NCBI GenBank assembly: GCA_029262455.1
Contig: JAJCZJ010000020.1
Coordinates: forward strand, 325,078-389,077
Source: Deltaproteobacteria bacterium
GTDB taxonomy: Bacteria > Desulfobacterota > Binatia > HRBIN30 > CADEER01
Reading direction: 5' to 3'
Length of the DNA: 64,000 nt
Shown: in pieces, positions 5,591 to 44,900 of the stretch
Position numbering within the stretch: the first letter of the stretch is position 1
How the letters are laid out: each line of letters opens with the position of its first letter
Position numbers and translations under genes: made by a program
Notes under the pieces: generated by a model
Databases searched by the model: none
What the model saw: the letters and a program-made list of their open reading frames with translations, nothing else
Told to the model about the DNA's origin: nothing

Positions 5591-5692
5591 TTCGGGCTCC
5601 GTCCACACTCCGAAGCACTGTCTTGCAGCCGTCGAGCCCATTCCGTGGCCAGCAAGTTCAGTACACATCGCGCACCTATCGGGAGGAAGACA

Positions 5693-21008: not shown

Positions 21009-21114
21009 GCGAAACGACCTTCCGCCGTCCAGCGCAGGATCGGCTCTTGCGAGCCGAACAATCGCCGAGGCCCCCGACGCACGTAACCCCTGGAAGCGTG
21101 AAATCATCCAGACT

Positions 21115-28907: not shown

Positions 28908-29405
28908 GTTTTCGGCGCCGGATTGAAGTGCGAAAACACATAGCGGCCGGAGAGGCAGATGTCAGCGACCGAGGACATCGGGGGTAGTGGGTCACTTTGA
29001 TCCTGAGCTCGGCGCAACCGGAGCGAAGTTGGGAGGGCACGGCACCGCCGAGCCTTTCCGGGGTGGAGTCTTGTCACAGCTACCACCCGCAGGAGCTATG
29101 CGCGGCTCGGCGGCGCCGCGCCCTCCCGGGACCCGGCTGCTCCCGTCCGCTTCGATCAAACCGACCCACCACCGGACATCGAACGCGGTACGCGTATTCT
29201 CCCTCGAAGGCCCGTTCCAAGGCGGCCTCATTCACACCCCGGTCGTAACGCAGCAAGGAGCCGTCTGCATACGCGCGCTGCGCTGTTTCCGGGTCTATGG
29301 AAATGCCACTCCGTTCCGCATTCATTTCCGTCATTTGCAGTTTCCGACACAAACCAATCCGCCCTCTTGCGGAGCCACCCAGGTCGCGCCAGGATCGCAT
29401 CCCTT

Positions 29406-30590
29406 ATGCCGAAAGAAGAGATCGAGGTCGAGGTTCGGGTTCGGCTGCGCGGAGGGCATTCCTACGATCTCACCCTATCATCCAACTCCGCTCTTCTGCG
29501 CGACTTGATCACGACGCTCGGCGGGTCGAGAAACTCGGTCCAGCCCCGACTCTTCCAGCTACCCCTCGACGGCGGCCAAACCTCCGCAACATTCGCCAGC
29601 GATCAGATATCAGCGATCGACACCCGTCCGCCACTCGACTGGAACACCATCACAACTGGTACGGAAGAGCGGTCCGCAAAAAGCCTCGGCGATGGTCCGC
29701 CTCTCGTCCTACGCGGCGCCCGCAACATTACACGCCAGCCATCCTACGAGGCAGCAGAGCGACGAGCGCGGCGGCTGATGGAACCGTTCGTGGCGCATCG
29801 ACAAGCCCGCCGTGCCGCACTGAAGAGCACTTGCGACGAGCTCGGCGGAAACACCTTCGTCGTCTCCCCCTTCAACCAAGGCTTCGTCCCGCTACTGCGC
29901 AACTGGGCCGCATCCTGTGATCGTTCCGGCATCGACTGCCGCGCCAGGACGGTACTGTTTCCGACCGACAACGGCGCCGACACTGCAGCACGCGAGCTCG
30001 GATTCGCAACCCTCTTCGACGGCGTCTCGTTTGACGGTGCCCCGCGCGACGCTATCAAAGTCTACGGGGACGCCCACTTTGCCGATTGTGTCTTCGCCAA
30101 GCTCGGCGCAGCAATCGACATGCTCGCTCTCGGCTACGACATCCTACTCCAGGATATGGATCTCGTCTGGTTCAAAGACCCGCTCCCCGGACTCAAAACT
30201 CGAGCGATGGCCGACGATCTGGACTTACAGTTCATGCGCGACATGAATCCGCGCTTCCAGCCGCTGTACTACAACTCCGGCTTCGTATTTATGCGCAACA
30301 ACGAATTCACCCGCCAAACCTGGAACACCATCTTCGACGCCTTTGCGGCGGTCGTGTTCTACCGCTCCGATCAAACCGTCGTGAACCAGGTCGTCGACTG
30401 CTACAAAGAGCGAGGATTGCGAGCCGCCCGTCTTCCAGATCGCTACGTAGATGGACAACTGCTGATCCGGGCCCAAACAAAACGCCGGCCTCTACCGCCA
30501 GATTCGATCGTGGCTCACGTCAACTGGACCGGAAACCTTGCCGAGAAGATCGCTCGGCTCAAAGCACTCGAACTGTGGTTCATCGACTGA
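29406..30590 (+). CDS. Unassigned N-terminal ~75-aa domain fused to a GT77/PF03407-like nucleotide-diphospho-sugar transferase
   Basis: ORF 29367..30590, ATG 29406. ILLQDMDLVWFKDPLPGL (DxD) and PLYYNSGFVFMRN are typical of Nucleotid_trans/GT77. N-terminus is described in the findings. Confidence 0.65.
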   Translation: MPKEEIEVEVRVRLRGGHSYDLTLSSNSALLRDLITTLGGSRNSVQPRLFQLPLDGGQTSATFASDQISAIDTRPPLDWNTITTGTEERSAKSLGDGPPLVLRGARNITRQPSYEAAERRARRLMEPFVAHRQARRAALKSTCDELGGNTFVVSPFNQGFVPLLRNWAASCDRSGIDCRARTVLFPTDNGADTAARELGFATLFDGVSFDGAPRDAIKVYGDAHFADCVFAKLGAAIDMLALGYDILLQDMDLVWFKDPLPGLKTRAMADDLDLQFMRDMNPRFQPLYYNSGFVFMRNNEFTRQTWNTIFDAFAAVVFYRSDQTVVNQVVDCYKERGLRAARLPDRYVDGQLLIRAQTKRRPLPPDSIVAHVNWTGNLAEKIARLKALELWFID

Positions 30591-30673: not shown

Positions 30674-31942
30674 ATGCCGACATTTGTTGGCGACACCTTA
30701 CCGGAGGCGCTTCGAGCCTTGGACTGCTCAAAATCCATCGAAACTCGTGTCCTGCCGCGCGCAGTGGCCTTCGGTCGCTTGCTTCTCGCTATCGCGGCGG
30801 CACTTGCCGTGGTGACAGCTCCGCATAGGGCGCCGGCAGCCCAGATCAAGTTCACGGGATTTGCCCAAATCAACGGCGCCCCGAGCGGACCGTTCGCAGC
30901 ATTCACAATGAATGAGGTCGTCGATATGACGATCACGATCGACGAGACTACGGCCGATTCGAATGGCGCCGGCGGCGCCGGATCATACAGCGATCCGACC
31001 TCGACCGCATTGTTCGAGGGACAGACCTCCGTGCAGATGGTCACTTTCACCGGCTTCGGCTTCGAACTCCTCGATTCGACGCGACTCGACCCGGCCAACG
31101 GCCTCGTCTCATCGAGCCCGAGCGCGGCGTACGTCGAGGACTGGGACCTGACCAACCTGTCGCCGATTTCGAACGTCGACGACCTTCCGACCATCATTGC
31201 CGAGTTGCCCAATGTGAACATTGGAACCGTCAGCGCCAACTTTTCGATACAACAACTGCCCGCCGGCCCGACCACGCTCTTCCTCGGGCTCAAGCCAACC
31301 GTCACGGTCACCGACTTTTGCGGCAACGGCATCGTCGAGGCCCCGGAAGCGTGTGACGATCCGGTGTGTTGCAACCCGACCTGCACCGCAATCATAGCGA
31401 ACGGAACTGAATGCCGCGCTTCAGCCGGCGTCTGTGATGTGGCCGAGACCTGCAGCAACGGCGCATGCCCCGTCGACGGCTTCGCCTCGATCGGCACCGT
31501 GTGCAACCCGTCATTGGGCGTCTGTGATCCAGAGGAAGTGTGCAGCGGCTCGAGCGCGGAATGCCCGCCGGACACGCTGACTCAGTTCACCTGTGGCACG
31601 ATCTGCGGCGCCCCGGTAGACGAGTGCGACGTTGCCGACATCTGCGTCTCCGGCAACGTCGATTGCCCACCGATGGGGACAATGTGCACACCGACACCGG
31701 TTCCGACTCCGACGCCCACGCCCGTTCCCGAAAATGGGTCCGGGGACGGGGCTTGCAGCGACGGTCTCGACAACGACAACGACAACCTCATCGACTGCGA
31801 CGACCCTGATTGCCTCGACGTCGAGGCATGCGAAACCGTGCACGCACCGACGCTCTCGCCAGGTGGATTGACGATCACCGTGCTCATCCTCGCCCTCATC
31901 GGCTTGTTGGCGATGGGGCGGGCAGTGCTCCGGAAGAACTGA
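30674..31942 (+). CDS. Secreted Cys-rich protein with disintegrin-like motifs, a PT linker, a DxDxD motif and an IPTL-CTERM-like tail
   Basis: Inner part of ORF 30086..31942. Start is ATG 30674 or GTG 30764 (MAFGRLLLAIAAALAVVTA signal). CGNGIVEAPEACDD, three copies of C-x5-CD-x2-E-x-C-x(4,5)-CP-x-D, TPTPVPTPTPTPVP, DGLDNDNDNLIDCDDPDC, APTLSPGGLTITVLILALIGLLAMGRAVLRKN. Confidence 0.7.
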   Translation: MPTFVGDTLPEALRALDCSKSIETRVLPRAVAFGRLLLAIAAALAVVTAPHRAPAAQIKFTGFAQINGAPSGPFAAFTMNEVVDMTITIDETTADSNGAGGAGSYSDPTSTALFEGQTSVQMVTFTGFGFELLDSTRLDPANGLVSSSPSAAYVEDWDLTNLSPISNVDDLPTIIAELPNVNIGTVSANFSIQQLPAGPTTLFLGLKPTVTVTDFCGNGIVEAPEACDDPVCCNPTCTAIIANGTECRASAGVCDVAETCSNGACPVDGFASIGTVCNPSLGVCDPEEVCSGSSAECPPDTLTQFTCGTICGAPVDECDVADICVSGNVDCPPMGTMCTPTPVPTPTPTPVPENGSGDGACSDGLDNDNDNLIDCDDPDCLDVEACETVHAPTLSPGGLTITVLILALIGLLAMGRAVLRKN

Positions 31943-31962: not shown

Positions 31963-32469
31963 ATGAGCGACTCCAAAAAGACAAGAAAGCAGCTAATCGA
32001 AGAACTCGAACAACTTCGTGGTCAAGTCGCGCAGCGACAGCAGTCGCAGTCGGACAACAGTGCACCGGCGCTTGCCGGCGACGTTTCACGACGCACCGCG
32101 CTAAAGGTCGCCTGGACCGCGCCGGTCATTTTGGCAATCCCTCTCCAGGCCGATCGCTCTGGCGCCCAACCTCCGGTCGGAACGGTGGCCCCGGGCTGTC
32201 CCACCATGACCCCGACCAACGCGGCCCCTCCGACTAGCTCGCCGACCTTGTTCCCAACGACCGCTGAGCCGACGATTTCGCCGACTCAACCAGTCCCGAC
32301 CACCAGGTTGCCAACGTCCAGTCCCACGAACGACCCGACATTGCGTCCGACCACCAGCCCGACGATCCCTGCCCCGACGGCTATGCCGACGGCGAGGCCG
32401 ACCACCAGCCCGACGATCCCTGCTCCGACGCTTTCCCCGACCCCTGGTTTCCCGACGCTTTCCCCGTAA
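31963..32469 (+). CDS. Pro/Thr-rich small protein with a conserved N-terminal helix and an SRRTALK Tat-like motif; candidate substrate/precursor 1
   Basis: Inner part of ORF 31810..32469, ATG 31963 lies 20 nt after the upstream stop. MSDSKKTRKQLIEELEQLRGQV...DVSRRTALKVAWTAPVILAIPL, then about 90 aa with about 26 Pro, mostly as P-T. Paralog of 45413..45892. Confidence 0.7.
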   Translation: MSDSKKTRKQLIEELEQLRGQVAQRQQSQSDNSAPALAGDVSRRTALKVAWTAPVILAIPLQADRSGAQPPVGTVAPGCPTMTPTNAAPPTSSPTLFPTTAEPTISPTQPVPTTRLPTSSPTNDPTLRPTTSPTIPAPTAMPTARPTTSPTIPAPTLSPTPGFPTLSP

Positions 32470-32611: not shown

Positions 32612-33976
32612 ATGTCGTCAGGAAACAGCGTAGAAACGCCGCCTACCAACTCTGGAGACTCCCCACGAGCACGGGGTGCGGCGGCTCGGCGGGTACGTCC
32701 GCGGCAGCGGGGCGGGCTCGAGACTTTCGAAGTACACAACGAAATCGTCGTGCTTCCCGGCGAGGGGGACCGCGTTTACGCGCTGAACGAGTCCGGTAAG
32801 GAGATCTTCGGCCTCTGCGACGGTCGCCACACCCTAGAGGCAATGGTCGACCAACTGGCGTCGAGGTACGACGCGCCTGACGTCGCGATCATGGGCGACG
32901 TGTCCGCAGCGATATTCGACCTCCACGGCCTCGGGCTGGTCGATATTCCTCCACCGGCTGACGCAGCTGCATCGATCGAGCCGCAGACCTCGGTCAAGGC
33001 ACGACCCAACGTGCGTTTCGTCTTCGGCATAGAGGACGTGCCCTATTTCCACTGGCAGCTTGCCATCCTCTTCGAGTCGCTCGTCGGCCAATTGCCCGAC
33101 GGTTGGGACGTCACCGTCGTCGTTTGCAACGACGAAGCACCGATTTCCGACGAGCTCATGAAGATCGTTTCCGAGTACGGTGTTCGCATCATGACCGGCA
33201 CCAGTCTCGCCGATCGCCACAGTCTCGACTTCGCCGGCGGCGGTGATCGCTACGTTCCGATGAACCGAGTCGAAGCACTCAGCGTCATTCGGCAAATCGT
33301 CGAACCCGAAGACGTCGTTTGCCTTCTGGACACCGACGTCTTCCTGTACGGCAACCTTCAAGAACAACTCTTCCCGACCGGCAACGCAATGGCCCGCAAC
33401 TGGATCATCTCCGAAGATCGGTACTTCGCGTTCTCGACCAACAACGAACGAGGACTGTCGCTCCCGAAGCTGCTCGAAGCCCTGGGGTGCGAGCAGGAGT
33501 TCAAACCCGGTGGCGTAGCGGTCTTCTTGACGGGAGAGACGATCCAACGCGAGCGCGTCATCCCCGACATTTTCCGTTTCCTTCAGGTTCTGTTCCTGCT
33601 CGGGAAAATCGTCGACGCACCAGCGCACGGCGTTTGGGTCGCCGAAATGGCATGCTTCGCAATGGCCATGTACCCCAACGAAATCGACTACGAGCTTCTC
33701 GACATCCCGCAATTCGCCGTCCAGGAGCAGCATGCTGAAGTCGCCCCCGACGGTTCGTTCTTCCACTACTACACCGACATCAACGACGGCGGGGGATCAA
33801 ATGGTCCGTTTTTCGAATCGCAGTGGCATAAACAGTTATTTCACCAGTCCAACATGCTCCTCGAAGACTTCGACAGCTTCAGAGTGAACGCCAAAGGCCG
33901 CCTCGAGCAGCGCTTCTTCGAAATCGCCGACAAGGCGAGAAAGCGCCTTTACGGCATCGAACGCACGGGCAAGTAG
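32612..33976 (+). CDS. PqqD-like domain fused to a GT95/GT96-like (HPAT / peptidyl-Ser galactosyltransferase-like) glycosyltransferase
   Basis: PqqD-like VYALNESGKEIFGLCDGRHTLEAMVDQLASRYD...AIFDLHGLGLV. GT part: FVFGIEDVPYFHWQLAILFESL, VVCLLDTDVFLYG, VWVAEMACFAMAMY. Confidence 0.6.
   Translation: MSSGNSVETPPTNSGDSPRARGAAARRVRPRQRGGLETFEVHNEIVVLPGEGDRVYALNESGKEIFGLCDGRHTLEAMVDQLASRYDAPDVAIMGDVSAAIFDLHGLGLVDIPPPADAAASIEPQTSVKARPNVRFVFGIEDVPYFHWQLAILFESLVGQLPDGWDVTVVVCNDEAPISDELMKIVSEYGVRIMTGTSLADRHSLDFAGGGDRYVPMNRVEALSVIRQIVEPEDVVCLLDTDVFLYGNLQEQLFPTGNAMARNWIISEDRYFAFSTNNERGLSLPKLLEALGCEQEFKPGGVAVFLTGETIQRERVIPDIFRFLQVLFLLGKIVDAPAHGVWVAEMACFAMAMYPNEIDYELLDIPQFAVQEQHAEVAPDGSFFHYYTDINDGGGSNGPFFESQWHKQLFHQSNMLLEDFDSFRVNAKGRLEQRFFEIADKARKRLYGIERTGK
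32717..32947 (+). other. PqqD-like (RRE-type) domain, copy 1, N-terminal
   Basis: aa 36-112 of ORF 32612; pattern L.LN..g..IW.LCDG..T..EI...L matches PF05402 by eye. Confidence 0.6.
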
Positions 33977-33980
33977 AGCC

Positions 33981-34598
33981 GTGTTGTCAATGTTCGATAC
34001 GCCCGCACACCTCGAGCAGCAGACGCGCGAGCAACAGGCCGCAGCCCGGTACTGCGGGCTCGGCTTCAAAAAGGCCACGCTGCCCTCCGAGGTCTTGCAA
34101 CGGTTGCGCCAACACCTGGAAACGAACAGCCGCCGATTCCGCGCCGAGGAGCCCATCGACTACCTCGTCAACCCGGACCCCGGGAAGATTCCGGCCCTTT
34201 ATTTCGAGGACAAAGAATTCAACGCCACCCTAAGTCGCGAGCTACAAGGATTGCACGAAGAGTGGGCCGGAAGGAGTCTGACCGAGTCCGCCTGCTACGG
34301 CATCCGCGTCTATCAACGCGGCAGCTTTCTCTACAACCACGTCGACCACACCGACACACACATCATCAGCTCTTCGATCTGCGTCGACCACCGCCTCGAC
34401 AAGCCGTGGCCCCTCTACGTCGAGGATATCGACGGCAATCCCCACCAGATCGATCTCGACCCTGGCGACATACTGTTCTACGAGGGAGCCCGCCTGCGAC
34501 ACGGCCGTGCCTATCCACTCGAGGGTGACTACTACGCATCCATTTTCGTCCACTATCGACCCGCAAATCTCTGGTCTTCGCGGCTCGTTGGCACCTAG
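33981..34598 (+). CDS. 2OG-Fe(II) oxygenase, prolyl 4-hydroxylase-like
   Basis: YGIRVYQRGSFLYNHVDHTD (HxD) and distal GDILFYEGARLRHGRAYPLEGDYYASIFVHYRP. Lies 4 nt after the upstream stop. Confidence 0.7.
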   Translation: MLSMFDTPAHLEQQTREQQAAARYCGLGFKKATLPSEVLQRLRQHLETNSRRFRAEEPIDYLVNPDPGKIPALYFEDKEFNATLSRELQGLHEEWAGRSLTESACYGIRVYQRGSFLYNHVDHTDTHIISSSICVDHRLDKPWPLYVEDIDGNPHQIDLDPGDILFYEGARLRHGRAYPLEGDYYASIFVHYRPANLWSSRLVGT

Positions 34599-34640
34599 TC
34601 GCCGATTTCGTTAAGAACACCCGAAAACGCAGTATTACTC

Positions 34641-36644
34641 GTGAGACATCTACTCTATACAAACTACCAGTCCGGTCAGTCGGGTTTGAGCAACGGCATC
34701 ATGTCGATCGAGCTGGGCGTGGTCCTCGCGTTCCTGACGAATCGGTTTCTCCTGCTCGATGGCAACATCTCCCCGCCGGCCAATATCGTGTCGTACGGCG
34801 ATCGAGTCGACAACAGCCAGCCGAGCCGCGTCACCGACCTGATCGACCTACCGGTCGCCTGGAGTGAGCCAGGAAGCGTCGACGTGTCCAAGTTGCCGTT
34901 CCTCGAATTGAGCGACGACCATCTGGGGAGTGCCGCGTTCTATGTCCCCGGCACCGTCGACATCCGATCCGCCGACGCGGAAGCGTTCGCCAACGGCAGG
35001 ACAGTGTGGCTCAACGCTGGCGGCTCGCTCGACGAGATCCCGGTGCTGCGAGTGTCCGAGGATCACAGCAAAGACAATCTTCGATACAATCTCAACTACT
35101 ACTCGTACTTCTTCTACCTCGACGACGAAACGCGTCGCTCCGTCTACCGCATGCTCGAGCGGATGCAACCAAAGCAGGACCTAGGGGAGCTGGCGAAGCG
35201 CGTCGCCGGCGATCTCGGAGCATTCAACGCGGTGCACTTGCGACGCGGTGACTTCAAGGTGACCTATGGAGTCACCACCCTCGACCGTCAACCTTGGGAA
35301 GCAATCGAGGCGCTCGAGCATCACTTCAAACGCGACGACACTCTGGTCTTCGTGACCGACGAGCGCGACGACCCGTTCTTCGACGAGATCAAGAAGGTCT
35401 ATACGCATCACGTATTCATCGATCACCACATCCTCGACGACTACGAGAAGGACTTCGCCGCATTGCAGCACCGCGACAGCATCGCCTTGGCCTATCTTTC
35501 CCAGCTCGTGGCGGCCGAATCCGCCGACTTCATTGGCACCATGACCAGCACGTTCACCGCCATCATCCAGCGCTACCGCGGCAATCGCGGCAAGGCCGAG
35601 AGTTTCAAGTACCTTTGGAACGAGCTCCCGGACGACGGCGATCGTCTCGAACGCGGCCGTCATCCGGTTAGTGAGTGCGTCCCGATGGACCGCGGCATGA
35701 TGGTCGAAGAGTCGTCGGGTCCGTACTCATGGAATCGCTACAACAAGAGGATCGCCGCCAACTGGATGCGCGAATGGCCCGAAAGTTTTCTGACCCAAGA
35801 GAGCCTCGAAACCGGCAAATTGACGACCGGGGCCAGCCCCGTTGCCCGCCCCATCGTTCTGGTTCGTCCCGAAAGGACGAAAGTCGAGGTCGCGTTCGAC
35901 GGCTTGAGCATCATTCTAAACTCGCAAGTGCCTCGCGTTGCGACCAAGCTGAGCGAAGCCTTCGAATCACGCCAAGCTGCGAGTCCAGCGAACGTCATCG
36001 GGGAGTTCGAGGTTGCTGAAGAAGACGGCGACTTCCGTCTTCTGCAACGCGGCCAGGAAATCGCCACCGCAGCAAGCTACGAGGAGTTGGCGCGCACGTT
36101 AAAACTCCGCATGGTGCCGATCTTTGTCGGTGCGCGCCGCCGGCACGTGTGGCTGGAAGCTTTTTCCTTCCGTAGAGCAGGCCATGCGCTGGTTCTCGCC
36201 GGCGACATGGGTCCTCCATCGGACTGGCTGCCGGACGCCATGTGCTCGAACGGCTGGGAGCTGCTGTGGGACGAGATCGTCCCGATCCGCCTGGAAGACT
36301 GTACCGTCACACCGTTCGGCCGCACGACCTGGCCGAAGGGCGCAGCCCTGCGCATCGACCGTACGCCCTGTCGCGTCAGCGGCCTGATCGTCACCAGCCG
36401 ACAAGTCCAGCGCCGCGACACCTTGACCGTCTTGTCCCCAGCCACCGGGGTGGCGGAGTTGATCGGCCGCTGCGTCGACTTCCGCACCGACCGCAAGCGG
36501 GCGGTAGAACGCCTGTGCAAGCTGGTCGAGAAACGAACCGTAGGCAGACTGTCCTTCAGCCGCGCCGAGACCGCTGTCGATCTCCTCACGCGCCCCTTCC
36601 TCGACGCGGAGCGTGAGTCCGCCCACGGTACAAAGTCTGCATGA
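34641..36644 (+). CDS. O-fucosyltransferase-like (PF10250-type) GT domain fused to an HprK-related-kinase-like domain with a degenerate P-loop
   Basis: GLSNGIMSIELGVVLAFLTNRFLLL, FNAVHLRRGDF, ADFIGTMTSTFTAIIQRYRG. C-terminal half: VEVAFDGLSIILNS...HVWLEAFSFRRAGHALVLAGDMGPPSDWLPDAMCSNGWELLWDEIVPI. Confidence 0.55.
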   Translation: MRHLLYTNYQSGQSGLSNGIMSIELGVVLAFLTNRFLLLDGNISPPANIVSYGDRVDNSQPSRVTDLIDLPVAWSEPGSVDVSKLPFLELSDDHLGSAAFYVPGTVDIRSADAEAFANGRTVWLNAGGSLDEIPVLRVSEDHSKDNLRYNLNYYSYFFYLDDETRRSVYRMLERMQPKQDLGELAKRVAGDLGAFNAVHLRRGDFKVTYGVTTLDRQPWEAIEALEHHFKRDDTLVFVTDERDDPFFDEIKKVYTHHVFIDHHILDDYEKDFAALQHRDSIALAYLSQLVAAESADFIGTMTSTFTAIIQRYRGNRGKAESFKYLWNELPDDGDRLERGRHPVSECVPMDRGMMVEESSGPYSWNRYNKRIAANWMREWPESFLTQESLETGKLTTGASPVARPIVLVRPERTKVEVAFDGLSIILNSQVPRVATKLSEAFESRQAASPANVIGEFEVAEEDGDFRLLQRGQEIATAASYEELARTLKLRMVPIFVGARRRHVWLEAFSFRRAGHALVLAGDMGPPSDWLPDAMCSNGWELLWDEIVPIRLEDCTVTPFGRTTWPKGAALRIDRTPCRVSGLIVTSRQVQRRDTLTVLSPATGVAELIGRCVDFRTDRKRAVERLCKLVEKRTVGRLSFSRAETAVDLLTRPFLDAERESAHGTKSA

Positions 36645-37630
36645 CAGACCAAGCAACCGCACCGCGCCAGATCGACATCCGCATCTCCACCATCGGCGGG
36701 CACGAGTATCGGTTGAATCTCCGCGAAGACGCCGTCCATTTGCGCGACCTCTTTACTCGATTCGTCAACCGACCGGCGACTGGGGCTGTCCGAGCTCCTG
36801 AATTCATCCAACTGCCCCTCGACGGAGGCAACGCTTCCTGCACGATCGCCGTCGATCAGATTGTGTCGATCGTCACCACGCCACCAGTCGTCATCGAAGT
36901 GCAACAACCCGCCGTCGAGCCAAACGTAATTCCAGATGTGCCGGCAGTGGTCGCGCCACCCCAGATCCGGCGCGCACACTACACGGTGATCGACGACTTT
37001 CTCACCGTCGATGAGCACCGAGACATGCTGGCGTTGGCATTGAGCGAGAAGGACAGCTTCGAACCCGGTACGGTGCAGGGTGAACCGAGTCCACACCGAC
37101 GAAACAGCGTCATCATGAACTTCGCAGACTCGGCGCACGGAACACTGCTGACAAGTCGTCTGCTCGTTTGGTTTCCATTGATCGCAAAGGCGCTGAAGGA
37201 ACCACTGTTTCCGCTCAAGACGGTCGAGTCGCAACTGACCGCCGCCAACGACGGAGACTACTATAAGCCTCACCTCGATACCGACGGGAAGACCCCCGAT
37301 TTCCGGGTCATCGCGTGCGTCTACTATTTCTTCCGCGAGCCAAAAGGGTTCACGGGCGGCGACCTACGCCTCTATGATTCCATCGAAACAGGTGGCGAAA
37401 TCTGTCAGGCGGATTCCTTCCAAGACATTCGGCCGGCAAGCAATCGCTTGGTCGCATTCACCTGCGAGACCTTCCACGAGCTGCTCGCGACTCGCTGCCC
37501 GTCCAAGGATATCGAAGACAGTCGTTTTGCGGTGACCGCGTGGTTTCACCGCAGCGGCGCACCGGACCCCGACGCCAAGTTCGGTTGGGGACATTATCGT
37601 TGCGGCGAAGTTCCGGAGGCACTGCGGTGA
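36641..37630 (+). CDS. Unassigned N-terminal ~80-aa domain fused to a 2OG-Fe(II) oxygenase (PF13640-like)
   Basis: ATGA overlap with the upstream stop. YYKPHLDTDG (HxD), GGDLRLYD, NRLVAFTCETFHEL, RFAVTAWFH. Confidence 0.7.
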   Translation: MTDQATAPRQIDIRISTIGGHEYRLNLREDAVHLRDLFTRFVNRPATGAVRAPEFIQLPLDGGNASCTIAVDQIVSIVTTPPVVIEVQQPAVEPNVIPDVPAVVAPPQIRRAHYTVIDDFLTVDEHRDMLALALSEKDSFEPGTVQGEPSPHRRNSVIMNFADSAHGTLLTSRLLVWFPLIAKALKEPLFPLKTVESQLTAANDGDYYKPHLDTDGKTPDFRVIACVYYFFREPKGFTGGDLRLYDSIETGGEICQADSFQDIRPASNRLVAFTCETFHELLATRCPSKDIEDSRFAVTAWFHRSGAPDPDAKFGWGHYRCGEVPEALR

Positions 37631-37802: not shown

Positions 37803-38930
37803 ATGATCTTCACGGTTTTCGTCGCACCGGTCGAACCAACGCAACAGTGGCGTGCCGATCTCCTCGAATACTCATGGCGACGCATCAAGCAGAGCGGCGA
37901 ACTGATCCGGCTGGCGCCAACCGCCCCCGGACGCGCACCAGGTAGCAGAGGGAGAGTCGGGAGAACCGTCAAAACGTTCGACTGGAACCCCCACCCGTAC
38001 ACCCAGGACGTGTACGCCGGCTATCAGACAACCGCCGGCGTACTCGAGTGGTTGTTCAACGAGCCGGCCGAAGGAACAGTCCTTTTGCTGGATTCGAGCT
38101 GCATCCTACGCCACCCGGTTACAGCAGAGGTCGAACCAGGCCACGTGCGCGGGTCGTCGTGGCCGGAGATCCCACTTGGCACGGACGGCCCATTCGGCCT
38201 GCATGATGATCTGAAGTTTCTCGAATCCTATTGCGTCAACCGCAAGCTCCCCCTCGCTCCCGTGCGGATGCCGATTTTGATCCACACGGCGGACCTGCGA
38301 AAAATCGCGGCGCGCTGGCTCGAGCTTACGGCGTTGATTCGATCCCATGCCGTAGGCGTTCACGGAAAATACCTTCATGCAGATCGCGTCGCCTACACCG
38401 TCGCCGCCGCCGAATACCGCATCCTCCACACCCTTGACGACCTCGGCACTACGACGTCGGATACCGGCAAAGACGTTCCGATCGTCGACTACAGCACACC
38501 GATCAAGTCCAAACAGGGAGAGATCGTCTGGGACCGAAAGGTCTATCGACCATGGGAGGCAGTCTACACCGAAAATGCGCGCGCAGGCGCAGGCAGAGAC
38601 GTACTCGGGATCCTGAACGAGATGGTGACGCGCCGCGAATCGGGAGCCGAGCTTGCGGCAACACGTCCACAGCGGTGCTACGGGGTGCGGGAAGCACGAA
38701 TTCTCGACGACATTCATCTCGAAGTACCTGGGTGTGCCGACTTGATGTCGCTGAATCAATCCGCGGCTGCCATCTGGGAGCTGTGCAACGGCGAGAACAC
38801 ACTCGCCGAGATCGTCAGCGAGCTCGAGAGACAATTCGACGCGTCACGCGAAACCCTCATGACATCCGTCGAATCGACGGCGAGGGATTTGGAAAGCTCA
38901 GGTGCCATCGAGCTGGAGGAGCTGTTCTGA
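37803..38930 (+). CDS. GT95/GT96-like glycosyltransferase fused to a C-terminal PqqD-like domain
   Basis: IFTVFVAPVEPTQQWRADLLEYSWRRIKQSGELIRL, AGVLEWLFNEPAEGTVLLLDSSCILRHPV, ILIHTADLRKIAARWLELT, ADRVAYTVAAAEYRILH. C-terminus: LMSLNQSAAAIWELCNGENTLAEIVSELERQFD. Confidence 0.6.
   Translation: MIFTVFVAPVEPTQQWRADLLEYSWRRIKQSGELIRLAPTAPGRAPGSRGRVGRTVKTFDWNPHPYTQDVYAGYQTTAGVLEWLFNEPAEGTVLLLDSSCILRHPVTAEVEPGHVRGSSWPEIPLGTDGPFGLHDDLKFLESYCVNRKLPLAPVRMPILIHTADLRKIAARWLELTALIRSHAVGVHGKYLHADRVAYTVAAAEYRILHTLDDLGTTTSDTGKDVPIVDYSTPIKSKQGEIVWDRKVYRPWEAVYTENARAGAGRDVLGILNEMVTRRESGAELAATRPQRCYGVREARILDDIHLEVPGCADLMSLNQSAAAIWELCNGENTLAEIVSELERQFDASRETLMTSVESTARDLESSGAIELEELF
38679..38927 (+). other. PqqD-like domain, copy 2, C-terminal
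   Basis: Last ~82 aa of ORF 37803..38930. Confidence 0.6.
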
Positions 38931-40156
38931 TGGCATCCAAAGCAAAACCAAGCGCCAAAAAGTCCGTGCCGACCACAAAAACAAAGCACGCAGCAAAACG
39001 TGCCAAAGCCTCGGCCAAGAAAACAGCCAAAGCGCCGCCCGGAAAAGCCACGACAGCACGGGCGAAGAAGACCACCAAGACTCCGGCCTCCAAGAGCCCC
39101 AAAACCCGGACCCAAAGGACCCGGGCCCAAAAGCCCCGGGCCCGCAAAGCCGCGCTCAAAGTATCGCAAACGGTGTCGCCCAAAGGATCGCAAACGACTT
39201 CGAAGACGGAGCGAACGACCCCATCGCCTCGCGCAAAGTCGCGGCAGGCCACAAAACAACCCCAGATCTTCGTGTCGATCGCCTCCTACCGCGACCAGTT
39301 TCTTCACTTCACCATCGAGTCGGTGCTCAAACAGGCGACGTACCCAGAACGGTTGACCTTCGGCCTCTGCTGGCAAGCCGACGACACCGAGCAACTCGAT
39401 CAATACCTGCACGATCCGCGTTTCCGCATTCGCAAGTACCCGTACTACGCGAGCCTCGGCTACGGTTGGGCAAGAGCCGAGATCCAAAAACTATACGCCG
39501 GCGAAGAGTACCATCTACTGATCGATTCTCACACGTATCTCGCCAAGGGGTGGGACGAGAATCTGATCGCGCAACTCGAGAGCAAGCCGGGCGAGAAGCC
39601 GCTACTGACGACCAGCTCACCCCCTTTCACCTTCGACAATGACGGCAACGTCGTAATCCCGTGGCAAGGGACCGAACACGACGGCGTGCCGCTGATGAAG
39701 TGCGCACGAATCCAACCGGCAGGGTGGGTCGACATCCAGATGTCCAATGAGCGCAAGTCCACCAAACATCAAACCACCGGATTGGTGTGCTGTAACTTTG
39801 TCTTCACGCACGGGGCTTGGATCCGCGAAGTGCCCGAGGATCCGGCGATGATCAACGCCGGCCACGAGTCAGCCCTTTCGGTTCGTACCTTCACCCACGG
39901 ATACGACATCTACCTGCCCGACGAAATTCAAATCTGGCACCTCGACTACAACAACTACCCGAACGGTGAGCGCAACAAGGTATGGGAAGCAAAGTCCGAC
40001 AGTTGGCAGTCTGAGGGCACCGAGATCATGCTGCGGCGGCTGCAAGCGCTGTTCTACAACCGCGGCGACCGCGCCTCGCTCGGCCGCTACGGACTCGGTC
40101 GATCCCGCACCGTAGCCGACTGGGCGGAGATCACCGGACTCGACCTCAGTGACTGA
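38930..40156 (+). CDS. Lys/Ala/Thr/Pro-rich basic N-terminal extension (~111 aa) fused to a GT60 Gnt1-like (PF11397) glycosyltransferase
   Basis: Inner part of ORF 38552..40156. ATGA overlap with the upstream stop, GGAGGAG SD at 38915-38921. MASKAKPSAKKSVPTTKTKHAAKRAKASAKK..., then QIFVSIASYRDQFL, LLIDSHTY. Confidence 0.65.
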   Translation: MASKAKPSAKKSVPTTKTKHAAKRAKASAKKTAKAPPGKATTARAKKTTKTPASKSPKTRTQRTRAQKPRARKAALKVSQTVSPKGSQTTSKTERTTPSPRAKSRQATKQPQIFVSIASYRDQFLHFTIESVLKQATYPERLTFGLCWQADDTEQLDQYLHDPRFRIRKYPYYASLGYGWARAEIQKLYAGEEYHLLIDSHTYLAKGWDENLIAQLESKPGEKPLLTTSSPPFTFDNDGNVVIPWQGTEHDGVPLMKCARIQPAGWVDIQMSNERKSTKHQTTGLVCCNFVFTHGAWIREVPEDPAMINAGHESALSVRTFTHGYDIYLPDEIQIWHLDYNNYPNGERNKVWEAKSDSWQSEGTEIMLRRLQALFYNRGDRASLGRYGLGRSRTVADWAEITGLDLSD

Positions 40157-41942
40157 CGTCGACTCCGCACTACTGCCAATTCCCCAACCCGAGTGGCGTG
40201 CTTCTTTATCCGGCGACGGCGCGGCAGTTGATGTCCTGATTTTAAGCAAGGACCGCGCCTGCCAACTCGACGGACTGCTGCGCACGATGCGCGCGTTCCT
40301 GACCATCCCACACCGGAAATACGTACTGTACAAGACGTCTAATTTGGCGTTCGAGCGCGGCTACGACATGCTCCGCCGGTGGAATCCCGAGGTCGAGTTC
40401 ATCGACGAGGCGCAAACGTTTCGACAATGCTACCTCGACCTCGTGGCAAGGATCGCCGCCGGGCCTGGTCGCTACTGGATGCCGGTGATGGACGACATGA
40501 TCTTCACTCGCACGTTCACCGCACAGCCACTCATCGACCTCCTCGACACAGACGAGGACGTGCTGGCGATCTCTCTGCGCCTCGGCGAGAACATTACCTA
40601 TTGCTACACCCGAAACGCTCCAACCACACCTCCGGACTTCAGCAACGGACACCGTTGGGAATGGAGAACAGCCAGCCCAGGCTACTGGAACTATCCAATG
40701 TCCGTCGACGCCAACATCTACCGCACGGCGGAAATGGCCGAATACATCCCGACCCTCCAATTCGGCAAGGCTGAAGTCATCGAGGCACGCATGGCCGGGG
40801 TGCCCTTGAACCGCCCCCATATGCTGTGTGAACCGACCCCCAGCGTACTCAATCTCGCGATCAACCGCGTTCAACACACCTTCAAGAATCGGCACGGCAC
40901 AATCACGCCAGAAGCCCTGAACGGCGCTTTCCTCGCGGGTTTCGCGATGGATGTGCGCCCGTTGCTGGGTCGAACCTTCAACGCCTGTCACGTCGAGGTC
41001 GAGCTGTCCTTGGTCCCCGATGCGCGCGAGCGCCCCGGCGCAACGCCCCTCTCTTCGACCGGCTGGAAACCACAGCGAAACGGCGCCGTCGTCGTGACCG
41101 AGAGCCATGCTGTCGTGACGCTCAAGAGGAACGGAACGAAGCTCAAACTCAATCAGAGCGCCGAAGAGATCTGGAAACTGTGCGACGGAACACGAACGCC
41201 CGAGGACATCCAAAACGAGCTCGCGCAACATTTTGACGCAACCCCGCGCCAGCTTCACAGCGGCGTACGAAGCGCCCTGGCGAATTTCATCAATCACGGC
41301 CTTCTCCGTCAGGAACGCCCGGAAGGCGCATACCGCCGCATCGACCTGCGCCAGATTCCCTGCTTCGTGATCAATTGCGAAGCCGATGCTGAGAAGGACA
41401 CGTTGATGAAGCGTCAGCTCGCTGAGCTCGGGATACCGTACGAACGTGTACCCGGGATCGCCGCAAGCCCGGATTGGGTCGGCGTCGCGCTGTCGCACCT
41501 CAAAGTGCTTCGCCTGACCCGCTCGACGACACCCTTCCTGGTGCTCGAGGACGATTGCTTGTTCAACGACCGCTTCCAACCAGTGTGGCAAGTACCGGTC
41601 GAGGCCGACGCCCTGTATCTCGGCGTTTCCGAGTTCGGCCTCGAGACCCCCGGTCACTTCAGCTGGGGCCGCCGGCGCAAGAACCAATGGAGACCCTACG
41701 ACCGGTCCTTCCTCCGCATTTTCAACATGCTCGCACGCCATGCGGTCGTGTACCTTTCCAACGACTACTGCGAGCAAGTCATCCAATCGCAAATCGAAGC
41801 ACTGACGAATCGAAGTTTGCCGTACCCTGGGGACATCGGCTGCGCGATGCTGCAAGCATCGCACGTCGTCCTGACCCCGAACGAACCGATCTGCCGGCAA
41901 ACCGGTCGTGACTCGACCGTGCGTCCGTTGCCGGAGCTCTGA
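40149..41942 (+). CDS. Three-domain protein: GT-A-like domain, central PqqD-like domain, GT25-like domain
   Basis: VDVLILSKDRACQLDGLLRTM; central KLKLNQSAEEIWKLCDGTRTPEDIQNELAQHFD; C-terminal IPCFVINCEADAEKDTLMKRQLAELGIPYERVPGI...FLVLEDDC. Confidence 0.6.
   Translation: MTDVDSALLPIPQPEWRASLSGDGAAVDVLILSKDRACQLDGLLRTMRAFLTIPHRKYVLYKTSNLAFERGYDMLRRWNPEVEFIDEAQTFRQCYLDLVARIAAGPGRYWMPVMDDMIFTRTFTAQPLIDLLDTDEDVLAISLRLGENITYCYTRNAPTTPPDFSNGHRWEWRTASPGYWNYPMSVDANIYRTAEMAEYIPTLQFGKAEVIEARMAGVPLNRPHMLCEPTPSVLNLAINRVQHTFKNRHGTITPEALNGAFLAGFAMDVRPLLGRTFNACHVEVELSLVPDARERPGATPLSSTGWKPQRNGAVVVTESHAVVTLKRNGTKLKLNQSAEEIWKLCDGTRTPEDIQNELAQHFDATPRQLHSGVRSALANFINHGLLRQERPEGAYRRIDLRQIPCFVINCEADAEKDTLMKRQLAELGIPYERVPGIAASPDWVGVALSHLKVLRLTRSTTPFLVLEDDCLFNDRFQPVWQVPVEADALYLGVSEFGLETPGHFSWGRRRKNQWRPYDRSFLRIFNMLARHAVVYLSNDYCEQVIQSQIEALTNRSLPYPGDIGCAMLQASHVVLTPNEPICRQTGRDSTVRPLPEL
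41079..41315 (+). other. PqqD-like domain, copy 3, internal
   Basis: aa 311-389 of ORF 40149..41942. Confidence 0.6.
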
Positions 41943-41977: not shown

Positions 41978-44900
41978 GTGAAAAAGGGCACAATCCACGA
42001 TCTCTTCTCCCGCACCGCTTGCGTCGTGTCCGACAGGCACCGATTCATCTATTTGACGGCGCAAAACGCCACGTCTTCCCTGAAGGCCGAGCTGTCGAAC
42101 GAGCACTGCGGCGGCGTTGTCCTCGCCCGCGCACAGGTGGCTGATAAACTCTGGAACCAATACTTTACGTTCGCCTTCCTGCGCGACCCGCTGACGCGCT
42201 TTCTCTCCGCCTATCAGGAAGTGTCTCTGCACATGGAGCGTGACAAACTCGAACCGCGCCCTTTCGGCCGGATGCCCGACGGCCTCGATCGCTTTCAGGC
42301 ATTTCTCGCGGACGTCGAGCAGAACGGTCCGTGGAACGAGCACATTGCACTCCAGCTAGCCTTCGTCGAGCGCCGAAGAATCGACTTTTGGGGGCTCGTC
42401 GAAACGCTGCAAGACGACTTCCAACAAATCTACACCCGGCTGGGATTGGGGACCTGTCCCGTTCTGCCAAAACGCCGCTCTCGCAGCGGCCGTGAGGAAA
42501 AGGACGGCATCTCGCGCTTCGCCTTCCATCCGGAGGACCTCGATGCGACGACAATTGAGCGCATCTACGACCTCTACCGTGAGGACGTCTTGCTGATTCG
42601 AGCGGTTCGCCCCGACGCACCTGAAATGCAGCCGCACTCAACCCGTGCCGCACCGCCCCCCGGAATGGTGCAGGTGGCGATCGCCCTGGCCAACGGCGGC
42701 GAATACTCCCTCGAACTTCCGCCCGGCCAACCAGAGCTGGGCGCTCTGCAAGCTGTGGTATCACCACAACAATCCGATGGACGTTTTCTCGGCCCGCAAG
42801 TTCTGCAGGTTCCACTGCGTGGTGGCAATTCCGCGCTGACGTTTTCCACGCAGCACCTCGTTCGTCTCGAGCTACGCCCCCCCGACGCCCGAGAACTGCG
42901 CCGAATCGAGGCGCCGGCCACCGGCACGGGCAACTCCGGAGTGAATCTAATAAACGTCGGGAACAAGCGGCCGCCAACCGAGGACCCATCGAGCAATATC
43001 GACGAGGCGCATCTCGGTGGCTACATTCGTGCGGCCAATACACCGATTCTCCACAGCGCCGCAGGCCCACACGGGGACCGGGGAACCTGGAATCCGCTGC
43101 TGTGGCGTTGGGCAATCGAAGATCTCGACGTGCGATCAGTGATCGATATCGGATGCGGCGAGGGACACGCCGCCGGATTTTTCTCCGACGGCGGGTGTGA
43201 AGTGCTCGCGCTCGATGGCAGCCTTCAAGCGCGCTATTCCAGCGTTGTTCCAGATCGCCACGTCGTACACGACTTCGTCGAGGGACCTTTCGTCCCAGAG
43301 AAAAGCTTCGACATGGCCTGGACCTGCGAGTTCGTCGAACACGTCGAGGCGCGTTTTCTCCACAATTTCCTGGCTACGATCGCATCGAGCCGCAAGTACG
43401 TGATGATGACGTTCGCCAGCCCGACACAAACAGGCTGGCATCACGTCAATTGCCAAGAACAGGGTTACTGGGTCGATCAGTTGGGACGCCTCGGGTTTCG
43501 CCTGGACGACGATCTAACCGAGAGAGGCCGAGCCTTGGCTCACTCTCATTTTCGCGAACGTGGCCTGGTCTTCGTCCGGCACCATCGAAAAGGCGAGTCA
43601 TCGAAGTCCACAGAACCGTCGCTGCGCGCGACTGCCGAGAGTCACTGTCTCGACCCGCTGCCGGTCCAATCCATGCAGGTCGCACAGCGCGAGAGCGATG
43701 CCTTCTACCTGTTTGTCGACATCTTCGTGCATCCGACCGCACCGAGAATCGTGGCGATCTCACCACCCTATGGCGAAGACTGGAATCCTAACGTTGTCGG
43801 CATCGACTACGATGCCGTCGACCTTGTATTCGGTGACATACGCGTCCGCGGCCGCTGCCTGCGGCACCGTCTCGACTCCTGGGAGCCTTGCATGCTTCTC
43901 GAGTTCGAGGACGAAGACCTAACAGAGCGCATTCGGGCCAACGACGAGATCAACGTCACGATCGAGGCCGGCTCGCATTCGTCGTCCTTCGTCCTGACGA
44001 CCCGCCCAGCGCCAGCCTACGATGTCGCAATGAGCCTCGTCGTACGCAACGAAAACCGCTGGATCCGCACGTTTCTCGACTACTACCTCGACTGCGTCAA
44101 AGCCGACCACGTCTTCATCTACGACAACGGAACGTCGGAACAAGACCAGCTGCTTTCCATTCTTCACCCGTACCGAGAGCGCGGGCAAGTGACGTACATC
44201 CCGTGGGATTTTCGCTGGCGCAACCGCATCGACCGCAAGATGATCGGCCAACCGACACAGGAGGCTCACTCCCTTGCAAGATTCGCAAACACCGGGTGGA
44301 TCGGCTTTCTCGACATCGACGAGTTCCTGCGCTTGCCGCACAGCACCCTGCCACAATTTCTCGCTCGCTTCGCGTCCGCGGAGGTCGACGGACTCTCGTT
44401 CGGTATCCGGTGGTTTTCTTACGAGGGCCCGCTTGCACTCGATGAGATTACGAGTGTGCCACTGCAATTCCTCCACTCGCGCCGCAATGAGCTCGGCCGA
44501 AAACGGCAGAAGTTCTTCGTCAAAGGCGGCGGCTCGAAGTTTCTTCGCTTGCATTGGCTCGAAGACGGAGGTCGCGAACTGCCCATCGACGACACCGAGA
44601 TCTACTTTCACCACTACGATCAACGTCCCGGCCGTTTCGAAGAAGGAAAGCAAATCGGAGGAGCGCGCGACGAATACATGCTGCGCTTCGCCGACCAGCT
44701 CTCGCGCCCCGAGCGGCACAGAGCCCCTCTAACCGAGAGAGGATGGATCACCCACATCAACTCTTCGATCGAACGCGCCGAACGCGACACCTCCAAACTC
44801 ACCCCGGAAGTCCTCGCCGTCGACGGCATGTGCGGGCGCTACACCCGTCACTTCTACAACAACCTCTGCAGCTTCGGAGGATGCCGCTACCTCGAGATCG

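Follow-up and report, generated by a model that had tools for sequence, protein, structure and literature searches.

Two distinct oxygenases, one resembling PhyA-type prolyl hydroxylases, in a conserved bacterial cassette for putative protein glycosylation

Two genes for distinct putative oxygenases of the Fe(II)- and 2-oxoglutarate (2OG)-dependent superfamily, here called ORF1 and ORF2 for their open reading frames (ORFs), are found in a 64,000-nucleotide stretch of contig JAJCZJ010000020.1 from a Deltaproteobacteria bacterium (assembly GCA_029262455.1). This whole stretch is referred to as the window. Both genes belong to a run of same-strand genes occupying ~29.4-45.4 kb of the window, and they probably constitute the oxidative tailoring pair of a conserved cytoplasmic protein-glycosylation cassette, whose substrate would be a protein with (x-x-P-T)n repeats. 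This reading draws on the folds, the conservation of the ligands, the family relationships, the synteny and the gene fusions, which were observed directly and are described below.

ORF1, 33981-34598, plus strand: GTG start, 205 amino acids (aa), a stand-alone double-stranded β-helix (DSBH) oxygenase of a family unrecognized by Pfam.
ORF2, 36641-37630, plus strand: ATG start, 329 aa, a two-domain protein.

The upstream gene of ORF1 terminates with TAG at 33974-33976, and four nucleotides (AGCC) separate this stop codon from the GTG at 33981; the gene call in the public record uses the alternative ATG at 33990, which gives a protein of 202 aa and a 13-nt gap. ORF2 begins at 36641 and overlaps the end of the preceding gene, g06, at 36644 through an ATGA. 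The ORF1 translation holds LYNHVDHTDTH and RLRHGRAYPLEGDYYASIFVHYRP, and that of ORF2 holds YYKPHLDTDG, FTGGDLRLYD and CETFHELL. Both ORFs, the motifs quoted from them, the 4-nt gap and the ATGA overlap had been reported in a preliminary description of this DNA, and all are present in the sequence. The HxD...H triad claimed there is likewise intact in both proteins, with putative ligands that are invariant or nearly so among homologues. Chance can be discounted as the source of the motifs, because each ORF has hundreds of homologues (E-values down to 1e-137 for ORF1 and 1e-224 for ORF2) and its putative metal ligands are invariant.

The N-terminal extra domain of ORF2 had escaped the preliminary description, and the protein is divided as follows.

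ORF2 "X" domain, 36641-36895, plus strand: ~85 aa, β-β-α-β-β-β in the AlphaFold2 (AF2) model, no Pfam match.
ORF2 catalytic domain, 36968-37630, plus strand: PHD/PhyA-type 2OG-Fe(II) prolyl-hydroxylase-like DSBH.
ORF2 H211-L-D213, 37271-37279, plus strand: iron ligands, invariant in 30 homologues.
ORF2 H279 to R295, 37475-37525, plus strand: distal His and Arg for the 2OG C5-carboxylate with the C286-P-S288 loop between them, from invariant columns and AF2 strands.

Judged by its sequence and fold, ORF2 belongs with the prolyl hydroxylases of the PHD/PhyA branch. PF13640 (2OG-FeII_Oxy_3) matches residues 198-303 with an E-value of 3.9e-15 (57 bits, cutoff 27). A search of the PDB with the ORF2 family profile found prolyl hydroxylases only, the best being the Dictyostelium Skp1 hydroxylase PhyA (DdPhyA; 1.9e-14); further matches were to EGLN1 (~1e-7), PPHD (1.6e-5), EGLN2 and a Phytophthora prolyl 4-hydroxylase (P4H). 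In an alignment of 30 sequences sampled from 99 homologues, nearly all of them full length, H211, D213, H279 and R295 are invariant, as are the inserted C286-P-S288 loop and a C-terminal GWG motif, and the ligand residues align with those of DdPhyA and PHD2. The AF2 model (predicted local distance difference test score, pLDDT, 88) has two domains joined by a low-confidence linker: residues 10-80 form the β-β-α-β-β-β unit, and residues ~110-329 form a DSBH in which R295 opens the last strand. ORF2 therefore has the fold, the HxD...H triad and the basic residue on strand VIII of the Fe(II)/2OG oxygenase superfamily, together with a threshold score and nearest relatives in the PHD/EGLN-PhyA-type (PF13640) group. 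Judging from these relatives, it is quite likely that ORF2 acts as a peptidyl-prolyl hydroxylase, probably a 4-hydroxylase. Orthology to a nucleic-acid or small-molecule dioxygenase, which the preliminary description had named as contrary evidence, did not appear. A nucleic-acid dioxygenase role was rejected: AlkB-type matches are low-ranked, and the "endonuclease V" label of phrog_274 comes to ORF2 through a weak phage-family match (E=7e-7).

ORF1 is a different case, and its proposed active-site residues were located mainly by conservation.

ORF1 H120-V-D122, 34338-34346, plus strand: proposed iron ligands, from conservation, at the end of the predicted strand 116-120.
ORF1 H174-G-R176, 34500-34508, plus strand: distal His and invariant Arg, from family conservation.

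ORF1 has no Pfam match even at E<=10 and no NCBIfam match, and sequence and profile searches of the PDB gave chance matches only; some sources label its homologues "prolyl 4-hydroxylase." Its AF2 model (pLDDT 94) is a DSBH, and the best structural match of the model is a protein prolyl hydroxylase. An exhaustive profile search found 4161 cluster representatives of the family at E<=1e-3. Conservation was counted in 155 domains from the best 150 of these 4161 representatives, mutually <50% identical: H120 is kept in 152/155 domains, D122 in 154/155, H174 in 148/151 and R176 in 150/151, and the near-invariant residues are G107, R109, Y111, H120, D122, H127, S130, W143, E168, H174, R176, G182 and H191. 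The NHVDHTD sequence contains two overlapping HxD motifs, of which conservation selects H120-x-D122 over H123-x-D125. By the AF2 model and conservation, ORF1 thus shows the DSBH fold with an HxD...H triad of the superfamily. The canonical β-VIII position for a 2OG-binding residue, 183/184, is variable in this family (R in 42/149, Asp in the window), and R176, two residues past the distal His, R109 and Y111 may be candidate substitutes. The absence of this canonical Arg/Lys, and of any curated oxygenase model that recognizes ORF1, might lead one to take the protein for a pseudo-enzyme, that is, a non-catalytic structural partner of a hydroxylase or transferase complex. Such a role is scarcely credible, given that H120, D122, H174, R109, Y111, S130, R176 and H191 are near-invariant in a family of >4000 clusters, a pattern typical of an active site under selection. 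Sequence and model instead point to ORF1 as a catalytically competent, highly divergent DSBH oxygenase, within an overall model that we hold to be reasonably likely.

The relationship of ORF1 to P4Hs is faint. The preliminary description took the tail motif of ORF1 to be typical of P4H-like enzymes; it proves instead to be the signature of a separate family, found in 116/120 close homologues of ORF1 and in 0/99 homologues of ORF2, and it differs from the canonical H-x3-P-V-x2-G-x-K-W. Indeed, in three fusion proteins (P0228, P0220 and P0227) this canonical tail is located in the other domain and not in the ORF1-like domain. By family model and by tail alike, ORF1 thus falls outside the collagen/algal-type P4Hs (PF13640/P4Hc). 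Sub-threshold matches to PF13640 or PF13661 were obtained for 4/31 diverse ORF1 relatives (best, PF13640 at 8e-4) and to no other oxygenase family, which links the family faintly, by sequence, to the P4H group. Comparison of the ORF1 family, in narrow and broad alignments, with the ORF2 family by hhalign found no relationship (probability <1%). The two oxygenases are therefore distinct, as the preliminary description had stated, and are not diverged paralogues at a detectable level. Relatives of ORF1 are also found in cyanophages (phrog_2954, E=3e-20; Synechococcus phage S-SCSM1, 28% identity in a search of BFVD). The cyanophage proteins called "ferrochelatase" (phrog_2954; BFVD A0A6M2ZHN7 and E3SI68) belong to this oxygenase family, and the label looks like a propagated mis-annotation.

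The oxygenase genes alternate with genes for transferases, four of which flank them, in agreement with the preliminary description. In the list below, RRE denotes the recognition element of systems for ribosome-made, post-translationally modified peptides (RiPPs).

g04, 32612-33976, plus strand: PqqD domain (RRE; E=7.6e-14) and an unclassified catalytic domain with a DxD motif, directly upstream of ORF1.
g06, 34641-36644, plus strand: O-FucT-like glycosyltransferase (GT) with a C-terminal HprK-like domain.
g08, 37803-38930, plus strand: HPAT-like (hydroxyproline O-arabinosyltransferase family) domain with a C-terminal PqqD domain.
g09, 38957-40156, plus strand: PF11397 "GlcNAc" glycosyltransferase (E=1.5e-44, 153 bits).

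This arrangement is widely conserved. When one genome per species was scanned, 45 loci came up. Those closest to the window (58-83% identity) belong to Candidatus Binatia, and the others to Acidobacteriota, Gamma- and Alphaproteobacteria, Nitrospirales, Myxococcota and Thermodesulfobacteriota. Gammaproteobacterial carriers are Halieaceae including Luminiphilus syltensis NOR5-1B, Elongatibacter sediminis and Lysobacterales, and alphaproteobacterial carriers are Devosia, Oricola, Roseitalea, Tepidamorphus and Methyloligellaceae. Across at least seven lineages the order g04 (PqqD-GT), ORF1, g06 (O-FucT-like), ORF2 and g08 (HPAT-like-PqqD)/g09 (Gnt1-like) is kept, usually preceded by a gene for an (xxPT)n repeat protein. 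A g04 homologue adjoins ORF1 in 44/45 loci, and ORF2 is present with ORF1 in 36 of the 38 loci that extend for at least 3.7 kb downstream of ORF1.

Hydroxylases of this kind can serve the translation apparatus, as do Pseudomonas PPHD on EF-Tu and OGFOD1/Tpa1 on uS12, and the same might hold for ORF2, which would then be a housekeeping hydroxylase of the oxygen-sensing type, acting on a ribosomal protein or translation factor and merely located beside glycosylation genes. Against such a role, which is very improbable, stand the strict synteny of the cassette across phyla, the ATGA overlap with g06, and the in-frame joining of g06 and ORF2 into one reading frame in two loci (L018 and L037). Furthermore, the X domain of ORF2 is common specifically to other tailoring enzymes of the operon, and an ORF2-like domain is fused to an ORF1-like domain within a reduced version of the cluster. 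In this last protein (P0259), HprK-like, ORF2-like and ORF1-like domains form one chain, and the neighboring genes encode a PqqD protein, an O-FucT-like protein and PF11397 proteins.

Other fusions bear on the function of ORF1. The set of ORF1-like fusions consists of the metagenomic proteins P0220, P0227, P0228, P0259, P0222 and P0224 and of genes at L047 (10001-12049) and L048 (1190-2818). In P0228, P0220 and P0227 a canonical collagen-type P4H domain is joined to an ORF1-like domain, and in P0222 and P0224 a g04-like protein is. The fusions therefore link ORF1 in function both to the PqqD-GT and to prolyl hydroxylases of the two types, and its fusion to P4H domains indicates that it complements rather than duplicates a 4-hydroxylase; it is thus probably not simply a second P4H, so far as sequences can tell. 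The same fusions can be read in another way. Orthosomycin oxidases (EvdO1/O2, AviO1 and HygX) and sugar hydroxylases provide precedents for glycan tailoring, in which one or both oxygenases, ORF1 being the likelier, would oxidize the glycan instead of the peptide, and glycosylation would start on the repeat Thr. P0222 and P0224, in which ORF1 is fused to a putative GT, fit a modification of the product of that GT equally. However, fusions of an ORF1-like domain to a bona fide P4H domain recur, and some of the fused proteins (P0228 and P0220) have no GT domain, which indicates a shared peptide substrate; the top structural match of the ORF1 model to a protein prolyl hydroxylase and the confinement of the weak family matches to PF13640/PF13661 likewise speak against glycan tailoring. 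For ORF2 it is very unlikely, given the PDB profile matches. Besides these cases, the P4H plus ORF1-like unit is once duplicated in tandem, ORF1-like domains are also fused to methyltransferases and ankyrin repeats, and the P4H plus ORF1-like fusion of L048 lies near a giant protein with sulfotransferase and GT92 regions like those of g11 (see below).

The candidate substrate is encoded by g03, homologues of which lie directly upstream of the g04 gene in most related loci.

g03, 31963-32469, plus strand: 168 aa, with an N-terminal amphipathic helix, a segment like a twin-arginine translocation (Tat) signal, and PT repeats.

The protein starts at 31963 with the amphipathic helix MSDSKKTRKQLIEELEQLRGQV, followed by the Tat-signal-like segment SRRTALKVAWTAPVILAIPL and then by 20 PT dipeptides in ~100 residues. 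Members of the family share one layout, in which an N-terminal amphipathic helix is followed by an acidic linker, an (L/I)T(R/K)R(D/E)xL-AW(V/I)APV(I/V)L-AxA segment and x-x-P-T repeats. Precursors of ~30 loci contain the conserved helix MSDSxKTKxELIEELEALR together with the TRRxxL-AWVAPVIL segment, and the TRRxxL-AWVAPVILSVPL-AxA segment is placed 40-70 residues from the N-terminus. A count over 16 precursors gave 305 PT dipeptides, with a spacing of exactly 4 residues in 198 of the 289 successive intervals; the number of PT repeats varies from 6 to 47 per precursor and the length of the repeat part from 60 to 300 residues. A conserved C-terminal end, IPVE(L/I)SxF(E/D)(V/I)x, is found in gammaproteobacterial and some acidobacterial precursors.

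Within the repeats of these 16 precursors, P and T only are conserved, and therefore Pro or Thr is the sole plausible target of an oxygenase acting repeat-wide. Lysyl, tyrosyl and aspartyl targets were rejected, Lys and Tyr being virtually absent from the repeats and Asp and Asn unconserved. The same composition counts against a non-proline target of ORF1, according to which ORF2 alone would make hydroxyproline (Hyp), and ORF1 would hydroxylate another residue (by Thr γ-hydroxylation, or a residue of the leader or linker) or another protein of the operon. Several features are nevertheless in its favor: ORF1 is unrelated in sequence to ORF2 and has neither the tail nor the basic residue that are canonical in P4Hs; it is constantly paired with a P4H, which suggests non-redundant chemistry; and Thr is the sole other invariant residue of the repeat. 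We regard a non-proline target as unlikely, both as a general explanation and for ORF1 in particular.

If the repeat prolines are hydroxylated, the cassette also encodes transferases of suitable families. PF11397, to which g09 belongs, is the family of the Skp1-Hyp GlcNAc-transferase Gnt1 (GT60). Characterized members of the PF11397/Gnt1, HPAT-like and GT77-like families are enzymes that glycosylate Hyp, so that Hyp-related transferase families are encoded alongside a hydroxylase, as in a Hyp-O-glycosylation pathway. In the g08 family, PF23452 (HPAT) is found in 20/27 members (best 1.1e-17) and PqqD in 27/27. In the g06 family, PF10250 is found in 23/23 members and Hpr_kinase_C in 8/23; the g06 protein itself matches TIGR04352 ("HprK-related kinase A") at 1.3e-6, the HprK-like region being residues ~480-600. 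HPr-kinase-like domains occur in RRE-dependent peptide clusters, and it is conceivable from sequence that this domain phosphorylates Thr or Ser of the precursor. The remaining tailoring genes of the run are the following.

g01, 29367-30590, plus strand: X domain and Nucleotid_trans GT77-like domain (PF03407, E=4.2e-15).
g10, 40149-41942, plus strand: unclassified N-terminal domain, PqqD domain and weak GT25-like region.
g11, 41978-45385, plus strand: 1135 aa with sulfotransferase, X domain, methyltransferase, GT92/GT2-like and second methyltransferase regions.

Two kinds of recognition domain are distributed over these enzymes. PqqD-type domains are found on three transferases of the window (g04, g08 and g10), which indicates a peptide or protein substrate recognized through a leader; these domains and the adjacent precursor with a leader-like region agree in sequence with an RRE-dependent, RiPP-like system. 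Copies of the X domain are found not only in ORF2 but also at 29409-29666 (g01) and 42641-42922 (g11), with the consensus ...GGh.y.L.L..d...L..L...QLPLDGG.aAcsF.s.qlVsi.T.PPV. A local hidden Markov model search of the fetched related loci found it in 38 ORF2 homologues, ~9 methyltransferase-containing ORFs and one GT77-like protein, and elsewhere among the loci it also stands before methyltransferases and after g06; its alignment gave a single match in a large sequence database. The X domain seems to be a new module for docking or recognition of the substrate or a partner, parallel to PqqD. No protease gene was noticed in the conserved cassette, in which no systematic protease search was made, and cleavage of the precursor by signal peptidase after AxA is a possibility suggested by its sequence.

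The GlcNAc-type transferases show additional variation. The g09 protein carries an N-terminal tail of ~95 residues, basic and rich in Lys, Ala, Thr and Pro (ASKAKPSAKKSVPTTKTKHAAKRAKASAKK, 38957-39250), which resembles histone-H1-like tails and whose sequence is not conserved among orthologues. Many gammaproteobacterial and acidobacterial loci (L003, L004, L006, L009, L013 and others) have two PF11397 paralogues, ~70% and ~35% identical to g09, the ~35% copy lying upstream of the precursor gene. These paired paralogues may carry out two different GlcNAc-type transfers.

Several observations weigh against the proposed hydroxylation and glycosylation of the repeats, in addition to the missing canonical 2OG-binding residue of ORF1, ~10 residues past its distal His, and the lack of a detectable sequence relationship between ORF1 and either ORF2 or solved P4Hs. 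In g04, the catalytic domain resisted classification: Pfam gave PqqD alone on 25 members, a PDB profile search gave PqqD proteins alone, and in an hhalign comparison with the HPAT-like g08 the PqqD part alone aligned. The g08 of the window itself reaches PF23452 only at E=0.13, its HPAT assignment coming from the orthologues. Two loci (L042 and L046) carry an ORF1 homologue without ORF2, and the Tat signal was assigned by motif inspection alone. Finally, the repeat Thr offers itself as an obvious site of direct O-glycosylation, for which Hyp is possibly unneeded, and PF11397 also includes Ser/Thr polypeptide GlcNAc-transferases; with an invariant Thr and such Thr-specific members in the family, Hyp is therefore a proposed acceptor. 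The same two points favor glycan tailoring, which we nevertheless consider improbable as an account of one or both oxygenases, and for ORF1 taken by itself still unlikely.

From the evidence above we infer a substrate, a target residue, a regiochemistry, an order of steps and an export route, as follows. The X domain would carry ORF2 to the substrate or to an enzyme assembly, where ORF2 would turn repeat prolines into Hyp, most likely by 4-hydroxylation. The hydroxyls would then act as acceptors for the HPAT-like, Gnt1-like (GT60), GT77-like and O-FucT-like transferases; three transferases would dock via their PqqD-type leader-binding domains, and the GT77-like and sulfo/methyl-transferase proteins via the X domain. 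In our preferred guess, ORF1 would add a second, regio-distinct oxidation (3-hydroxylation, formation of dihydroxyproline, or oxidation of a separate subset of prolines), whose product would be the acceptor for the adjacent, and sometimes fused, PqqD-GT. ORF1 and ORF2 show no N-terminal hydrophobic segment, signal peptide or membrane segment when their translations are read directly, which suggests that they act in the cytoplasm, with its supply of 2OG, Fe(II) and nucleotide sugars; the modified precursor would be exported last, because it bears the Tat-like signal. Hydroxylation of the repeats is a well-supported reading for ORF2. For ORF1, another proline oxidation is put forward tentatively, its prospects being a little short of even. 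The idea in the preliminary description that these oxygenases create Hyp acceptor sites thus retains the support of the oxygenase folds, the Hyp-related GT families and the repeats conserved in P and T only, and loses the argument from the P4H tail.

Some further genes of the window may be related to the cassette. The product of g02 (30701-31942) is secreted-looking and Cys-rich, with a linker PTPVPTPTPTPVP and an acidic double-disulfide repeat, NF033662 (4.2e-7); it ends in a hydrophobic anchor followed by RAVLRKN. This protein is conserved in L002 and L045 alone, which are the closest (Binatia-like) loci, and it possibly serves as a second substrate or as a partner. A protein of 744 aa encoded at 5645-7879 has a signal peptide, no Pfam domain, Gly/Ser/Asp-rich β-helix-like repeats and a PT linker, PPTPTPTSTPTATPTATPTATATPTAT, and may be another exported PT-bearing target of the cassette. 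Upstream of the cassette, three tandem genes for YfhO-like (GT-C type) membrane proteins and a gene for an MBOAT O-acyltransferase, at 16733-24116 and 27498-28907 (minus strand), suggest that a surface polymer is additionally glycosylated or acylated outside the cytoplasm.

The cassette is close in enzyme families to two eukaryotic pathways, by analogy. In the Skp1 pathway of Dictyostelium and Toxoplasma, the prolyl 4-hydroxylase PhyA is followed by Gnt1 (GT60), PgtA and AgtA (GT77). Similarly, ORF2 is closest to DdPhyA, the cassette has a strongly matching PF11397/Gnt1-family transferase and a GT77-like one, its enzymes appear cytoplasmic, and hydroxylation is proposed to create the sugar acceptor. 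In contrast to Skp1, which is modified on a single Pro, the proposed substrate of the cassette is an exported-looking protein with 6-47 PT repeats. Moreover, the cassette is bacterial, has an unrelated second oxygenase (ORF1) in its core, has PqqD/RRE or X docking domains on its transferases, and adds HPAT-like, O-FucT-like/HprK-like, sulfotransferase and methyltransferase functions. The other pathway is the biosynthesis of hydroxyproline-rich glycoproteins (HRGPs) in plants and algae, in which P4H, HPAT (GT95) and the GT77 arabinosyltransferases RRA/XEG113 act on extensins and CLE peptides. The cassette, like this pathway, combines a prolyl-hydroxylase-like enzyme, an HPAT-family protein (recognized in most orthologues, as above), a GT77-like protein and a Pro-rich repetitive substrate. 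The plant enzymes are type II membrane proteins of the Golgi or endoplasmic reticulum with collagen-type P4Hs, whereas ORF2 is of the PHD type and soluble; the plant motif is Ser-Pro3-5, whereas that of the cassette is x-x-P-T, with recognition that would be guided by leader and RRE.

Less complete likenesses are found to other systems. Bacteria are known to have prolyl hydroxylases, the P4H of Bacillus anthracis being named beside PPHD. We know of no description of PPHD as embedded among glycosyltransferase genes. ORF2 differs from the single-domain PPHD in its extra N-terminal domain and its fixed place in a glycosylation cassette, and its profile matches PPHD more weakly (1.6e-5) than DdPhyA (1.9e-14). 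A bacterial PHD-type prolyl hydroxylase acts on EF-Tu (PMC7864055). With RRE (PqqD)-dependent RiPP pathways, including lasso-peptide clusters, the cassette shares PqqD domains on three enzymes, an adjacent precursor and an HprK-like domain. Unlike in those pathways, the "core" is a repeat protein of 60-300 residues with a signal-like segment and not a short peptide, the RREs are fused to glycosyltransferases, and neither a leader protease nor a cyclase is evident in the cassette. As in LH3 and mimivirus L230, where a hydroxylase is coupled to a transferase that glycosylates the new hydroxyl, g04-ORF1 fusions (P0222 and P0224) follow the same logic; LH3 and L230 are multifunctional collagen lysyl hydroxylase/glycosyltransferases, whereas the repeats of the cassette are virtually without Lys, and the folds and families of both partners differ.

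In a limited full-text collection of literature, neither this cassette nor bacterial HPAT-like enzymes were found described, and no account turned up of PqqD-fused glycosyltransferases that work with prolyl hydroxylases. The oxygenases belong to a known superfamily, and their pairing, the ORF1 family and the surrounding system appear undescribed. To our knowledge, Hyp-linked glycans are regarded as eukaryotic, being those of plant and algal cell-wall proteins, signaling peptides and protist Skp1. The conserved cassette suggests that bacteria make hydroxyproline-linked glycoproteins. A broader picture, doubtful when all its parts are taken jointly, is that the cassette may be the first bacterial machinery for Hyp-O-glycosylation, leader-guided, also sulfating and methylating, and with Tat-type export, which would build an extensin- or mucin-like surface polymer; that it may represent the prokaryotic gene pool for the eukaryotic PhyA-Gnt1-GT77 and P4H-HPAT pathways; and that ORF1 may found a new class of 2OG oxygenases, producing 3-Hyp or 3,4-dihydroxyproline and obligatorily paired with a 4-hydroxylase.

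The interest of the cassette lies in glycobiology and in 2OG-oxygenase enzymology. ORF1 stands for a large family (>4000 sequence clusters) that is unrecognized by any curated domain model, and three cultured carriers, Luminiphilus syltensis NOR5-1B, Elongatibacter sediminis CH-27 and Tepidamorphus sp. 3E244, make experiments on the cassette possible. If the proposal is true, its soluble, leader-guided enzymes would be available for engineering Hyp-glycosylated polymers, the evolutionary origin of the Hyp-glycosylation pathways of eukaryotes could be approached by a tractable route, and Hyp-linked glycoproteins would be made in bacteria too.

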